From Negativicutes bacterium (GTDB taxonomy: Bacteria; Bacillota; Negativicutes; UBA1444), in the NCBI GenBank assembly GCA_963665275.2, contig CAXXIN010000007.1, positions 128,001 to 192,000 of the forward strand: 64,000 nucleotides of DNA, in the 5' to 3' direction. Position 1 is the stretch's first letter, and each line of letters starts with the position of its first letter. A program made the position numbers and the translations under genes. The notes below the pieces were generated by a model. It searched no databases, was not told where the DNA came from, and worked only from the letters and a program-made list of their open reading frames with translations. Shown here in pieces: positions 1-8,174 of this stretch.

Positions 1-1235
1 AGTGAGTTTCCATAAACAATCTGCTTGCGTCCCGGATCAAGAGTTTCAAGTATAATCAAATTGATTTTTGAGTGAGGGTTTTTTTCGACAATATTTTTGA
101 CATTTCCAATCACCTGTTGGCATAATACATCAAACGCCGATGCCATTTCTTCATAGTCCGACGGATCATCTAATATCTTTGCAAGAAACGCTTCATTTTG
201 TGGATCATCAGTCAAATATGCAAGTAGTAAATTGGGCTTATCACGATTACTATCCGAAACAGCTTTCCATGTTTTGCCTACTCTTTCCTTATGCGTCAAG
301 AATGCGAGCGCATCACTGATCATTGCGACTTCATCTTTACCCGCTTGAAACCCTTTGGTCCCGTTCATCTCATAACGAACTAAACAAGGAATATCAGCAT
401 TTTTCGCGTACAAATATGTTTGCCCAAGAATCGGGATGTTGGGATTAGGAAACTTTTCACCTATACCATCCTGACTCTTTCCTGAAAGCACACCCCGCAA
501 AGATCGCGTTGTCTGCTTTTCCAACAAATTTTGTTGGTTGAGTAGCGCAATTAAAGCATGCAAAGTGTCTTGATCAATCACCTTATTGCGAAAATTGCTT
601 GTTTCATACACGTCGTAATAGGTCATGCAACCTGCAACATACTGTTTTGATTTTTTATCCCAAGTACCTACAAGTATTTCCTTGATAAAATCAATGTTTT
701 TTTCATCGCCACAAGTCGGAATGTAATCCTTTAGAAACAATACGAGTTTATTCTCGAACTGCACTGCTTCGGTTGATTTGGGAAAGCAACCAATCAACTG
801 CCGAAATGAGGCTAATTCACTGTTATCACTTAGCAAAACCGGTCTCAACTCGTTCAGCGACCATTCGGAAATATGGAGGCCTAACTCTGCTTCATTTAAT
901 TTATCCAAACACAAGGATGATAGCAGAGATCTTTTGAGAGGAACTGCGGATTTCTTCCAAATAGCATCATCTATTTTTTCACTCTCATCAACGGACAACA
1001 ATGGTTTCTGAATTCTTATCGCCGGAAACGAGTTATGATTCCCCTTACTATGTTTCCATAAACGAGAAGTATCATCTTTCTGTAAAAAGCGAATCGCGCG
1101 AACGATTCCGCATCGGTCAAGTTCAATCAGCATGCACATAGACTTTCCAACAGTGCCTATACTGGGATGCGTTGTAGATTGCAACAGTCCGTGATGATCC
1201 AGTGCAACTGCAAGTTCATACAATTCATTAAGCAT
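1..1235 (-). CDS. Cas8c-like large subunit of a type I-C-like effector complex (3' end beyond window)
   Basis: ATG at 1235 overlaps the cas5 stop. The frame is open to position 1: MLNELYELAVALDHHGLL...GVLSGKSQDGIGEKFPNPNIPILGQTYLYAKNADIPCLVRY...LDPGRKQIVYGNS. Position after cas5c is where cas8c lies. Absent from the ORF track because it runs off the edge. Confidence 0.72.
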   Translation of the reverse strand, partial: MLNELYELAVALDHHGLLQSTTHPSIGTVGKSMCMLIELDRCGIVRAIRFLQKDDTSRLWKHSKGNHNSFPAIRIQKPLLSVDESEKIDDAIWKKSAVPLKRSLLSSLCLDKLNEAELGLHISEWSLNELRPVLLSDNSELASFRQLIGCFPKSTEAVQFENKLVLFLKDYIPTCGDEKNIDFIKEILVGTWDKKSKQYVAGCMTYYDVYETSNFRNKVIDQDTLHALIALLNQQNLLEKQTTRSLRGVLSGKSQDGIGEKFPNPNIPILGQTYLYAKNADIPCLVRYEMNGTKGFQAGKDEVAMISDALAFLTHKERVGKTWKAVSDSNRDKPNLLLAYLTDDPQNEAFLAKILDDPSDYEEMASAFDVLCQQVIGNVKNIVEKNPHSKINLIILETLDPGRKQIVYGNS

Positions 1236-1830
1236 AGTGCAGCACCCCTTTGTCGATCATTACATTCTGCGTAAACTTTGGGGCAACTGACCCTGCGGTT
1301 GGTTGATCGTACATCGTATTAAGCATAGATGGAATGACAAGGCTAATAGACGTATCTGCAAAGGTTTCCGCGCGAATTGGGCCGAAATAGGTCGGTACAA
1401 ATTCTTTCCAACCCAAAAATGGAGTGGAGTGAAGATGCCCTGAGGCAAGTCTGCGCATAAATACTTCTTGTAGCTGATGCTGCGGATTGTTTCCTGTTCG
1501 TGGCGGCGATTTCGAGAGAATCACGCCACGTATTTTATAGCAGACATTTTCAAGTACGGTTGCGAAGATCTGAAAATTGTTTGTACCGCTTTTTTTAAGT
1601 GGTCCACCATAATTTGTCGTATACTTATGAAATACAATTGGGTTACAAATTTCAACGCTCTGTGGCTCAAAGTACGCCATTTTTGACATAACAACACATT
1701 CAAAAATAGATTTAAGGGCCGATTTGGTAGGTGCCTGATACGACACCGGAGAAGATCCAGTATCGGGCCGCGTGAACATTGCTGCAGGCCCTGCAATTTC
1801 ATACGCGACCTGATACGCTTTTTCAATCAT
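1228..1830 (-). CDS. cas5: CRISPR-associated protein Cas5, type I-C (Cas5c/Cas5d)-like, divergent
   Basis: Motifs GPAAMFTRP..VSY.APTKSA, VLENVCYKI and FMRR..G....PFLGWKEF match the Cas5c pattern. SD AAGGAAGGGG precedes the ATG at 1830. Confidence 0.88.
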   Translation of the reverse strand: MIEKAYQVAYEIAGPAAMFTRPDTGSSPVSYQAPTKSALKSIFECVVMSKMAYFEPQSVEICNPIVFHKYTTNYGGPLKKSGTNNFQIFATVLENVCYKIRGVILSKSPPRTGNNPQHQLQEVFMRRLASGHLHSTPFLGWKEFVPTYFGPIRAETFADTSISLVIPSMLNTMYDQPTAGSVAPKFTQNVMIDKGVLHYA

Positions 1831-1925
1831 ACAACCCCTTCCTTTCAATTTTCACGTCAATTTTTTCTTTCCCTGAAATGTGTTTTTTGATCAAACCTGT
1901 GTAAATTCCCCCGTTTTTTACCCAC

Positions 1926-1966
1926 GTATCATTGATATGGGAAACATTTACCCATATCAATGATAC
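1926..1966. repeat. Perfect 16-bp inverted repeat upstream of cas5
   Basis: GTATCATTGATATGGG-aaacattta-CCCATATCAATGATAC. Confidence 0.9.
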
Positions 1967-2019
1967 CCAAGTTAAAAATACTGATTGACAACCCCATTCT
2001 TACCCGCCCACATAAAGAA

Positions 2020-2061
2020 ACGCCTCCCGTTTCGAACCGCGCAGGTCCATACGAGAGGCGT
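2020..2061 (-). repeat. 42-nt hairpin element, copy 1 (terminator-like)
   Basis: ACGCCTCTCGT...ACGGGAGGCGT followed by TTCTTT on the minus strand; 34/42 identical to 4262-4303. Confidence 0.7.
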
Positions 2062-2187
2062 CCGTGAAAGTGACAGCATGCAATATCATCACCTGTCTTC
2101 CCTGGATGGAATATTGTCCCTATTTTAGGGTTCGCCATACAGGTATGATGTCCTGCCATTTTAAAATATTTTTTTGTTCCTCCAATT

Positions 2188-2244
2188 TTATAACTCCACC
2201 CCATCCGGGCAAAGCTCGGCGATCAATCCTTCCAGTTTACTCAT
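2188..2244 (-). pseudogene. N-terminal remnant of a type I restriction specificity subunit (HsdS)
   Basis: MSKLEGLIAELCPDGVEL* matches the common HsdS start MSKLxELIxELCPDGVEY and overlaps the rhuM stop. Confidence 0.7.
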
Positions 2245-2656
2245 CCGCATTGCCGCCTTTCTGCAACAGCAGCTTCACTTCACGGTCAAAATCCGAAGTG
2301 ATCTTTTGCCTTTTATTAAATTCAGCATATTCCGCTTCCGCTTTTTCAACAGCCATTTGTTTTGAAATCTTCCCTTTATCGGATAAGATTTCATATTTAC
2401 GAAAAGCCAAAAACTCATTGATGCTAGTAGCAAATTCCTTCATCGTGAAGGAATTCTCCCGCTCGATCAAATCTTCTATGTAATCAAAATAGCCTGATAC
2501 AGCGCGTTCCAGCCGCCTGATCTGCGTTTCGAGCACCCTCCTGCTGAACTACCGAGAATTCCTCGGTAGTTGCCGTTTCATCCAATTTTTCTCGGCATAT
2601 ATGTTTTTCAAGTGCAGGGATATGTTGTCTGTTGAACAACCAAAGAGGTCTGCCAT
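2237..2656 (-). pseudogene. RhuM-family protein, frameshifted and internally deleted
   Basis: N-terminal part MADLFGCSTDNISLHLKNIY, frameshift, LDETATTEEFSVVQQEG, then joined to the C-terminal part LERAVSGYFDYIEDLIE...SDFDREVK. Confidence 0.8.
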
Positions 2657-3722: not shown

Positions 3723-4325
3723 TTACTTTTCCCCATACCACCGCAGCGCCTTTTTCACCACACCCGCCTGTTCCTGTTCCGCCCGGCGGATGATCTCGGC
3801 GCAGGCATTAGCATCGCTGGCGGCGTCATGGTGATCGAGAGGAATCGCGAGGTGGGAAGCGACCGTCTGCAGTTGGTGATTGGCGAGGAACGGCCAGGTC
3901 CGACGGGCTACGGTGACCGAGTCGATGGAGCCTCCCTGCCAAAAACCAAGGTGATAATACTTGACCAGTGCAAAGAATACTCCCAAATCAAAGCGGACAT
4001 TGTGGGCGGCAATCACGTTGTTAACCAGATAGGGACCGATTTGCGGCCACAGTTGCCCGAAGTCCGCTTCCCTCGCCACATCGCGCCAGGTGATTCCATG
4101 GATGTAGGTGAACACAAATTGATCCGTCGGCGGCCTGATCATCCAGGATCGCCGTTCGATGATCTCTCCTGCGCGCACTACGACCAGGCCGAGCTGGCAG
4201 GCGCTGTCCGGTGATTGATTGGCAGTCTCGAAATCTATAGCGGTAAAATCAGGAAATAGAGACGCCTCCCGTTCCAAACCGTGCAGGCTCGGACGAAAGG
4301 CGTTTTTATTCGTTGCATTATTCAT
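3723..4325 (-). CDS. DEDDh 3'-5' exonuclease (DNA polymerase III epsilon-like)
   Basis: AIDFETAN, AHNVRFD, HHDAASDA motifs; SD AAAGGTGAG before the ATG at 4325. Confidence 0.9.
   Translation of the reverse strand: MNNATNKNAFRPSLHGLEREASLFPDFTAIDFETANQSPDSACQLGLVVVRAGEIIERRSWMIRPPTDQFVFTYIHGITWRDVAREADFGQLWPQIGPYLVNNVIAAHNVRFDLGVFFALVKYYHLGFWQGGSIDSVTVARRTWPFLANHQLQTVASHLAIPLDHHDAASDANACAEIIRRAEQEQAGVVKKALRWYGEK
4262..4303 (-). repeat. 42-nt hairpin element, copy 2
   Basis: ACGCCTTTCGT-CCGAGCC-tgcac-GGTTTGG-a-ACGGGAGGCGT. Confidence 0.7.
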
Positions 4326-6125: not shown

Positions 6126-8174
6126 TTATACCCGGAACTTATGGACCGCCTGGGTCAACTTTTCCGCCAGTCGGGCCAACTCCTCGCTGGCGGAAGCTAT
6201 TTCCTGCGTAGTAGCCGATTGCTCCTCCGTAGCTGCCGCCACGGTCTGGGATTGGCTGGCTGAGTTCCTGCTGATTGCGTCAATATCCTTGACCGATTCC
6301 ACGATTTGCTGGGAGCCCTTGGCCATTTCCTCCATAACGACGGAGATTTCGCTCATTTGCCCTGAGATCTCGTGAATGGCTTCAAATATGTCGGTAAAAG
6401 ATTTTCCGGCGTCGCTTACCGCATCAGCACCGAAACGCACTTCCTTCGTTCCCTCGGTCATCGCTTCAACCGCTTGATTCGTTTCGGTCTGGATTTCGGC
6501 GATTAGCTGGGCTATCTGCTTGGCAGCCGCACCGGATTGTTCCGCCAGTTTTCGGACTTCATCCGCTACCACTGCGAATCCTCGTCCCTGTTCTCCGGCC
6601 CGGGCCGCCTCGATGGCCGCATTTAAAGCCAACAGGTTGGTCTGTGCGGCTATTCCTGTTATCGTAGCAACAATTTGACCAATTTCTTTGGACCGCTCCC
6701 CTAAACGTGTCACCACTTGAGCGGATTCCGAAACCGTTGTTTCGATTGTTCCCATTTGCTTTATTGCCCTATCGACAGACTGACGCCCCAACTCAGCCGC
6801 ATCGACCGATTGCGTCGCATGGCCGGAAATCGCGCCGGCATTGGCGGAAACCTGCTGTATGCCTGCCGATAATTGTCCAATGACCGAACCGGTATCGGCG
6901 ACAGCACCGGCCTGTTTTTCACTTCCCGCCGCCACTACCGCAATAGATGACGCTACCTGGTTGGCCGTCTGGGCAGCCCGTTCGGCGCCCGCAGTCAATT
7001 CTTCCGATGAAGAAGTCAGGCGCTCGCTGGCTTCACCCATTTGCTGGATCAATTTTCGCAAACTACCGGTCATTGTGTTGATCGCCGAAGCCAGCTGCCC
7101 GATTTCATCTTTTGAGGTCGCAGGAATGGCGTCTACCGCAAGGTTTCCTGCCGCAACTTCCTGCACGTTTCCCAGTATTGCGCGAATTGGATTCGCGATG
7201 CTCCTAGCAATCAGGCTGGCGCAGAAAGCGCCTACAGCCATTGTGACTAATGCAATCAATGAAATCATCAGAATCAATTTATTTCGCTCAGCCACCATCG
7301 CAGCAGTGCTTTCACCAGCAAACAGCACTCCGATGATTTTGTTGTCCACACCGACTAACGGCAGATAAGAAGTGAAGTAGTCCTCGCCCAGAACGTCGGC
7401 TCTGGCGCTATATTTTTTGCCGTCCTTGAGAACAGCCTCAGCAATTTCCGCATTGAGTTTGCTTCCGATCGCCCTTTTTCCGTCTTTGATCATCGTGGAT
7501 GCAATCCGCTCATCGCCAAGAAACAGGGTAATATCGGTTCCATACATATGCTTAACCCTATCTACAAAAGAGTCTTTGGTCATATCGTATCCGGCGGAAA
7601 CAACTCCTATAACCTGCCCCTGTTCGTTTTTTATTGGCGCCCCGGCCCGAGTTGTCAGTTTGATGATATTACCCGTCTCGGTTGTTGCAATAGTTGTTCC
7701 TTGCAATGCCTTCTGAACATTTTCCTGGTTGGCTATACTATCGCCTTTCTTTTCGTCGTGGACGCGTACAAGAACGACGCCCTTATCGTCGGTTATTGTA
7801 ACGAAGTCAATCCCGAGTTCCTTCGCAATTGGTGCGCTAATACCCAAAAGAGCCCTTGTATCCTTGAGTATCAACGCCTTGCGGATTTCAGGATTAATGG
7901 ACAAAACCGCAACGCTCTTCAATGCATCATTTTTTTGGTTTTCCACCTCATTTTTTAGTCCTTCGACCCCCTGGCGGGCGCTTTGAAAATTTGTCATCGC
8001 CAAGCTGTTCGAAAACTGGTATAAGGCAGGAACTGTCGTCGCAATGACGGCTATCGCAATTACCACCGAAATATAGAGAATCATCCGGGTCCGTAATCTC
8101 ATCGAAAGGCCCCTAAAGTTCACCACCGAAGCGCAACTGATTCCGAAGCGTTTGGACATCACTAATTCCGTCAT
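6126..8174 (-). CDS. Methyl-accepting chemotaxis protein (Cache and HAMP domains)
   Basis: [38 protein letters not shown]; two transmembrane segments. Confidence 0.96.

Follow-up and report, generated by a model that had tools for sequence, protein, structure and literature searches.

Does a Cascade (CRISPR-associated complex for antiviral defence) operon that opens with cas5 encode a repurposed RNA-guided complex, or is it one end of an ordinary defence locus? The question is posed by the first 1,830 nt of a 64,000-nt stretch from a Negativicutes bacterium (assembly GCA_963665275.2, contig CAXXIN010000007.1, here C7), which covers C7:128001-192000 and is called the window below. An earlier note, made from the letters of the window, had described a divergent type I-C-like operon of the CRISPR (short palindromic repeats, clustered and regularly interspaced) class and proposed a repurposed complex, possibly using an atypical guide or effector. 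We read the 18 kb to the left of the window (L005) for the remaining operon.

The minus-strand operon continues beyond the window edge, and most of the locus lies outside the window; its order is cas5, cas8c-like, cas7, cas3, cas4, cas1, cas2, leader and array. We conclude, with a probability of about 0.88, that this is a complete and apparently intact type I-C locus, whose effector half belongs to a deep and widespread branch and most likely replaced a canonical effector module beside resident adaptation genes and array. This makes it an ordinary defence locus, if one with its genes in an unusual order, rather than a repurposed Cascade; the impression of a Cascade lacking cas3 was an artefact of the window edge.

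Gene content and subtype of the complete locus

The features of the locus are as follows.

C7 129228-129830 (window 1228-1830), minus strand: cas5, first gene of the operon, 200 aa, ATG start
C7 127139-129235 (first 411 codons at window 3-1235), minus strand: cas8c-like gene, 698 aa in the contig
Window 1228-1235, minus strand: overlap of the cas5 stop with the cas8 start, 8 nt, ATGCTTAA, read from the sequence and the open reading frame (ORF) coordinates
C7, probable start 127146, end 126271, minus strand: cas7, PF05107 at 170 bits; the probable start lies 8 nt before the cas8 stop
C7 124085-126271, minus strand: cas3, 728 aa, HD nuclease and helicase; 1-nt overlap with the cas7 stop
C7 123381-124064, minus strand: cas4, TIGR00372 at 128.8 bits
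C7 122353-123384, minus strand: cas1, TIGR03640 (Cas1c), 494.6 bits (cut-off 385)
C7 122053-122343, minus strand: cas2, TIGR01573
Between cas2 and the array: leader of about 170 nt
C7 118424-121884: CRISPR array, 51 repeats

All seven cas genes are intact and closely packed, with overlapping stops and starts. The type I signature, a Cas3 that joins an HD nuclease to a superfamily-2 helicase, is present: the protein scores 46.3 bits on TIGR01596 cas3_HD (cut-off 43.45) and matches the Pfam DEAD, ResIII and Cas3 C-terminal domains. Cas1c, a separate Cas4 and Cas2 constitute the I-C adaptation module. PADLOC placed an I-C-only model on top for five of the seven proteins (Cas5c, Cas8c, Cas3c, Cas4c and Cas2c), with Cas3c at E 8e-97 and 323 bits against 206 bits for Cas3b. 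The top match of Cas1 was Cas1c (PDLC01743), and that of Cas7 was a joint I-B/I-C model, PDLC01614, which bears the name Cas7b (172.6 bits; Cas7c 116.3).

This content contradicts the proposal of a repurposed complex with an atypical guide or effector, since immediately downstream come cas7-cas3-cas4-cas1-cas2 and an array of the standard I-C kind; every partner that the earlier note had left to be sought in adjacent DNA (cas7, cas3, cas1, cas2, cas4 and an array) was found to the left of the window. What the note had reported of the window itself was borne out. The operon begins at cas5, with neither cas3 nor an array upstream of it in the window, and the 200-aa Cas5, which exceeds the Pfam Cas_Cas5d cut-off, carries a variant motif: residues 19-31 read FTRPDTGSSPVSY. 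The canonical motif with which the note compared it holds too, as a solved Dvulg-subtype Cas5 (3vzi) reads FTRPEMKVERVSY at the aligned position. The large ORF begins MLNELY at window 1235 and leaves the window after 411 codons, extending to 698 aa in the contig, and its 8-nt overlap with cas5 makes translational coupling plausible. Both proteins have indeed diverged strongly from canonical I-C, Cas5 scoring below the Cas5c cut-off and Cas8 being invisible to Pfam and NCBIfam.

The family of Cas5 is nevertheless recognisable. It scores 26.7 bits on Pfam PF09704 Cas_Cas5d, above the gathering score of 23, and 42.6 bits on NCBIfam Cas5c, below the cut-off of 85; PADLOC Cas5c gave E 1e-20 and solved Cas5c chains E of about 2e-7. 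A profile of the branch described below aligned with a canonical Cas5c profile at 99.4% hhalign probability (E 1.7e-21). The 11 top Foldseek matches of its AlphaFold2 model, which had a predicted local distance difference test score (pLDDT) of 85, were I-C Cascade chains or free-standing Cas5c/Cas5d-type crystals, with template-modelling (TM) scores of 0.70-0.77 for I-C, 0.59 for I-B and about 0.5 for I-E. The genome (92.6% complete) yielded no match to the Cas6 models TIGR01877 and PF01881, and it has neither a second array nor a second Cas5c-like gene. The I-C combination of a Cas5c-type Cas5 with no Cas6 is present.

The large subunit is a Cas8c (Csd1) type. Two results count against this assignment: the protein had no Pfam or NCBIfam match, and a profile of 39 Cas8 relatives found no solved Cas8c by sequence. 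Ten of the 39 aligned relatives did reach Pfam Cas_Csd1 (best E 2e-9), and the PADLOC Cas8c model PDLC01562 (CAS-I-C, large subunit) covered residues 1-696 of our protein at E 3.1e-160, being the sole Cas8 model that it matched. As the earlier note had suggested, we compared a predicted structure with Cas8c. The nine best PDB matches of the AlphaFold2 model (pLDDT 87) in Foldseek all came from type I-C Cascade entries (E 5e-11 to 1e-4); they are the large chains, labelled I, K or H, which we read as Cas8c from their length and coverage, the listing giving entry titles and not chain names. The best E was 5e-11 for I-C Cas8c and 4e-3 for I-B Cas8. In addition, the C-terminal ~115 aa matched ~115-aa chains of I-C Cascade entries, here read as Cas11c, at TM 0.6-0.76 (normalised to target length).

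The array consists of 51 repeats of 32 nt, 50 of them identical, and 50 spacers of 32-35 nt, one of which is duplicated (49 distinct). Its leader end adjoins cas2; its distal end is degenerate, repeat 51 carrying two substitutions and C7:118424-118590 breaking down into a repeat that is truncated, a single variant of 33 nt and a fragment. In operon orientation the repeat reads GTCGCGCCCCATGCGGGCGCGTGGATTGAAAC; when folded it forms a stem of 7 bp closed by a 5-nt loop and followed by an 11-nt tail with ATTGAAAC at its end. I-C repeats are expected to look like this, being about 32 nt long with a GC-rich hairpin and a 3' tail of 11 nt that ends in ATTGAAAC. The same stem-loop and tail architecture is reported for Cas5c substrates (PMC8524198). 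An orphan 41-nt sequence at C7:113273-113313, about 5 kb past the distal array end, is 85% identical to an array stretch that is mostly repeat.

A branch with cas3 after cas7 and its canonical counterpart in a congener

A scan with the single Cas8 protein found one relative only, and the 13 genomes of the order held no Cas8 relative outside the source genome. A metagenome scan with the Cas8 alignment gave 397 stretches encoding relatives, from which 80 loci were kept; L006 and six genome loci were added to these. In all 72 related loci that hold both cas8 and cas3, cas3 lies after cas7, and no related locus had its best cas3 match before cas5. Among 401 sampled genomes of the phylum, the Cas5c model matched 111, 106 of them above the cut-off. 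Apart from ours, six full-length matches fell short of the cut-off, each of them ordered cas5-cas8-cas7-cas3, and the fetched loci above it had cas3 before cas5 (4/4). Between branch and canonical loci, Cas5, Cas7 and Cas3 are 25-29% identical and Cas4, Cas1 and Cas2 44-55%; similarity between the two kinds of Cas8 was undetected by tblastn.

The Cas5 tree comprised 97 rows (65 branch, 20 canonical and 12 type I-B) after nine partial matches had been dropped, 11 identical rows merged and two unusable I-B loci removed; the canonical sample is biased to the loci that scored highest in a single phylum. A split with a Shimodaira–Hasegawa-like approximate likelihood ratio test (SH-aLRT) value of 99 separates the branch from the other rows, the tool warning of long branches, and the canonical I-C rows are not one clade, with two of the 20 nearer the I-B outgroup. 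The earlier note had named nesting of Cas5 within described I-C clades as evidence against a non-canonical complex, and this was borne out only by half: Cas5 does not nest among the canonical I-C proteins, its branch being separate and monophyletic, yet that branch is closest to I-C by profile and by fold.

Standard annotation has overlooked this common I-C branch, which the present survey documents. Among the matches listed, 14 Cas8 relatives carried names from their sources (NCBI or JGI): 12 were called hypothetical protein, one flagellar protein and one, a distant relative named by NCBI, Cas8c/Csd1. The strong PADLOC Cas8c match suggests that profile builders have already filed this Cas8 subfamily under I-C. 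A literature search, outside which two reference classification papers and supplements lay, found no paper describing the order cas5-cas8-cas7-cas3; given that scope, the branch cannot be called undescribed.

A genome of the same genus (G009) carries a canonical I-C locus at the syntenic site (G009:C64, L155 1-14705, against C7:121853-141267), where the flanking biotin genes and an exonuclease gene are 72-75% identical in nucleotides to those of the source genome. The order there is VWA, WYL regulator, cas3, cas5, cas8c, cas7, cas4, cas1, cas2 and array, and the effectors are easily recognised (cas5 at 158 bits in Pfam, cas8c at 614 bits on Cas_Csd1). The two loci agree closely in Cas4 (79%), Cas1 (85%) and Cas2 (89%) but only distantly in Cas5 (28%), Cas7 (26%) and Cas3 (29%). 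Homology starts about 8 nt inside cas4, leader and array align, and the repeats differ at two loop positions and no others. A shared site with a close adaptation module, leader and repeat beside divergent effectors indicates that the effector module was swapped.

The closest effector relatives provide a candidate source. Where a related locus extends 2.5 kb or more past cas3, cas4-cas1-cas2 was present in none of the eight whose Cas8 is at least 43% identical and in 21 of the 22 more distant ones; two locus pairs in this count look like duplicates. In the eight (L006, L008, L009, L011, L016, L017, L018 and L021), the 2.7-7 kb that follow cas3 are free of cas4-cas1-cas2. Most simply read, a cas5-cas8-cas7-cas3 cassette without adaptation genes took the place of the canonical effectors, while the adaptation module and array next to them were already resident, which makes the locus a natural example of an effector-module swap next to conserved partners. 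In L011 and L018, an I-C-type array stands directly after cas3, in the orientation opposite to the cas genes.

Subunits, CRISPR RNA processing and rival explanations

Codon M567 of cas8 could serve as an in-frame start, with 132 aa remaining from there to the end. Across 87 loci, a start codon occupies this position without exception (ATG in 83, GTG in 4), a Shine-Dalgarno core lies 5-12 nt before it in 86, and the exact AAGGAG in 74; the upstream strings number 65 distinct forms, so the rows are not all independent. The nucleotide motif is kept across proteins that are just 26-30% identical. This pattern fits a small subunit, Cas11, that would be translated within cas8 as in I-C, with no separate cas11 gene. 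Internal translation of the I-C small subunit is reported in 10.1101/2020.04.18.045682 and PMC7684278.

The Cas5 site itself has changed. Cas5c is described (PMC8524198) as having a Tyr/Lys/His catalytic triad whose Lys is the sole invariant residue. In the 20 canonical rows, helix 1 ends with Y-W-K-P (0.95, 1.00, 0.95, 1.00) and helix 3 opens with K-H (1.00, 0.90); in the branch, the former site reads A/V, R/M, x, K and the latter A/Q, L. The column immediately preceding that of the Lys holds His118, 98% conserved in the branch, which stands at the start of a predicted helix (116-129) equivalent to the one that holds the canonical Lys-His. Taken together, the missing Cas6, the replaced triad and the conserved His most likely point to a rebuilt active site in Cas5, a protein whose reported catalytic residues are not conserved here.

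Modelled on canonical I-C, the system would work as follows. Cleavage of the array transcript would fall at the 3' base of every repeat hairpin and, given that there is no Cas6, would presumably be carried out by Cas5. The resulting CRISPR RNAs (crRNAs) would assemble with Cas5, Cas8, several copies of Cas7 and the Cas11 made from the internal cas8 start; the complex would bind matching DNA and recruit the HD-helicase Cas3 for its degradation, and new spacers would be added by Cas4-Cas1-Cas2. We infer in this way both that the locus is active and that Cas5 is its crRNA processor.

Canonical I-C systems (Dvulg; the D. vulgaris Cascade entries 7kha, 8dex and 8dej, and a second Cascade-Cas3 series, 8g9s and 8g9t) consist of the same seven families without cas6. 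The source locus shares with them the Cas5c-type fold (TM 0.70-0.77), a Cas8c fold with a Cas11-like C-terminal domain, the internal Cas11 start, the 32-nt repeat with its 7-bp stem, 5-nt loop and 11-nt handle ending ATTGAAAC, and a Cas1c above the NCBIfam cut-off. It differs from them in that cas3 follows cas7 instead of preceding cas5, that Cas5, Cas7 and Cas3 are about 25-29% identical to theirs, and that in Cas5 the Tyr and Lys are replaced and the conserved His is shifted by one. Among the defining I-C traits examined, the reported Cas5c triad and the textbook gene order are the two that the locus lacks.

Several observations weigh against an intact type I-C locus of the history proposed above. 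The triad columns of our Cas5 hold V47, Q119 and L120, and across the branch they are mostly A (0.69, Tyr column), A (0.65, Lys column) and L (0.78, His column); with the canonical Tyr and Lys replaced, repeat processing by Cas5 is not assured. Cas5 and Cas7 fall short of the curated cut-offs set for their I-C models in NCBIfam. The locus departs from the textbook I-C order cas3-cas5-cas8c-cas7-cas4-cas1-cas2; gene order is descriptive and is no formal criterion for this subtype. Type I-C is further characterised by a 5'-TTC-type protospacer-adjacent motif. The spacers matched nothing among phages and plasmids, and the source genome gave one 21-nt partial match, judged to be chance. Searches of the spacers in 13 genomes of the order returned repeat-like or marginal matches only, and the arrays of the relatives L021 and L018 had no protospacer among phages. 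Finally, the comparison behind the swap leaves its direction unrooted.

These points can be assembled into rival accounts. In type I-B loci, cas3 comes after the Cascade genes and before cas4-cas1-cas2, which is its placement here. The Cas7 families of the two subtypes are related, our Cas7 has the joint I-B/I-C model named Cas7b as its PADLOC top match, and the Cas5 tree neither unites the canonical rows nor keeps all of them away from the I-B outgroup (2/20 nearer to it). The effector module might accordingly be an I-B derivative, or an I-B/I-C intermediate that lost Cas6, and the I-C label wrong. We regard this as quite improbable, since every score favours the I-C over the I-B model (42.6 against 17.4 bits for Cas5, 108.8 against 74.6 for Cas7, 323 against 206 for Cas3), the large subunit matches the Cas8c model only and its fold prefers I-C (E 5e-11 against 4e-3), the Cas5 fold does likewise (TM 0.70-0.77 against 0.59), and the locus, unlike I-B, has cas5 first, no cas6, a Cas8c-like large subunit and an I-C-type repeat. 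Adaptation-less 'I-C d2' variants of the Bacillus cereus group are described (PMC7242445) as derived from an intact I-C, whose gene order is here taken to be the canonical one. The closest effector relatives here likewise do without cas4-cas1-cas2, and the source locus differs from those variants in having the adaptation module.

An account in which the locus is a decaying or inactive hybrid, its swapped-in effector unable to process or use the resident array, appears unlikely. It draws on the substituted catalytic positions of Cas5, which lacks both Lys and Tyr, on a module that came from an adaptation-less sub-branch (all eight closest relatives with enough flank lack cas4-cas1-cas2) and on spacer searches that found no protospacer. 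Seven intact, tightly packed genes with overlapping stops and starts speak against decay, as do 50 identical repeats out of 51, 49 distinct spacers, a His118 that is 98% conserved at the start of the helix of the canonical Lys-His, and the I-C-type arrays that accompany many branch members, including the adaptation-less L011, L018 and L021. Least credible of all, and in our view very nearly discounted, is a Cascade without Cas3 that was repurposed, like transposon-associated or regulatory Cascades, for an atypical guide or effector. The view inside the window and the strong divergence of Cas5 and Cas8 invited it, but an intact 728-aa HD-helicase cas3 follows cas7, cas4-cas1-cas2 and a 51-repeat I-C array come after it, the same order recurs in 72/72 related loci, and the 30 ORFs scanned upstream included no Cas or transposition protein.

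Preferring a complete type I-C locus with an exchanged effector half, we also put forward a broader and distinctly more tentative proposal. The cas5-cas8-cas7-cas3 arrangement may mark a deep, experimentally uncharacterised sister lineage of the I-C effectors, one that possibly has a rebuilt Cas5 RNase site (no canonical Tyr or Lys, a shifted His) without Cas6, has kept the hidden Cas11, and includes, as the sub-branch closest to our locus, adaptation-less cassettes that can join canonical I-C adaptation genes, a leader and an array already resident in a genome, as seems to have happened here by comparison with the congener. If this were true, two effector complexes that are about 27% identical would read the same repeat.

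Operon head and flanking sequence

Upstream of cas5, the window holds the following features.

Window 1831-1860, minus strand: 5' untranslated end of the operon with the cas5 Shine-Dalgarno sequence, read from the sequence
Window 1914-1978, no strand assigned: inverted repeat, AT-rich, its 31-nt arms 81% complementary and its core GGGAAA...TTTACCC; distance to cas5 85-150 nt
Window 2016-2065, window 4258-4303 and C7:118271-118316: hairpin element of about 46 nt, with a 12-bp GACGCCTCCCGT stem and a conserved loop (the third copy lies outside the window)
Window 2237-2536, minus strand: C-terminal fragment of a RhuM-family protein, 99 aa, Pfam 69 bits, profile positions 174-249 of 252

A ribosome-binding site, GGAAGGGG, lies 5 nt before the cas5 ATG, and the length of Cas5 in the relatives (200-204 aa) fits the chosen start codon. 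The stem-loops that the earlier note had seen upstream of cas5 are real (the inverted repeat at 1914-1978 and the hairpin at 2016-2065), whereas its "restriction-system debris" was loose wording for the RhuM fragment. This ORF, which covers no more than the final third of the RhuM family profile, is a gene remnant, situated between the CRISPR-Cas locus and an aldo/keto reductase gene that lies farther upstream of cas5. Neither the locus nor the sequence upstream of it matched an Rfam family.

The idea of a partner gene conserved upstream of cas5, for instance one for a regulator or a second nuclease, was considered and rejected. Of the 31 related loci in which about 2.5 kb or more precedes cas5, 20 supplied 30 upstream ORFs, and these are heterogeneous. 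Their products are transporters and metabolic enzymes, together with a single restriction-modification pair and a single WYL regulator; neither a Cas protein nor a transposition protein is among them.

The hairpin element of about 46 nt has just three copies in the genome, all inside 14 kb, one of them just upstream of cas5 and one just beyond the distal array end. Its use as a boundary of the effector swap was rejected, the element being absent from the congener's locus; it may represent a terminator family or a recombination scar.

Placed at the operon head, the inverted repeat at 1914-1978 could act as an operator or as a bidirectional terminator. In the congener, at L155 ~6500-6700, about five tandem GGG(T)AAA-N-TTTACCC-like palindromes lie between the WYL regulator gene and cas3; no WYL gene stands beside the CRISPR-Cas locus of the source genome, unlike in the congener. 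By the resemblance of their cores, these palindromes and the repeat at 1914-1978 may belong to a shared type of operator.

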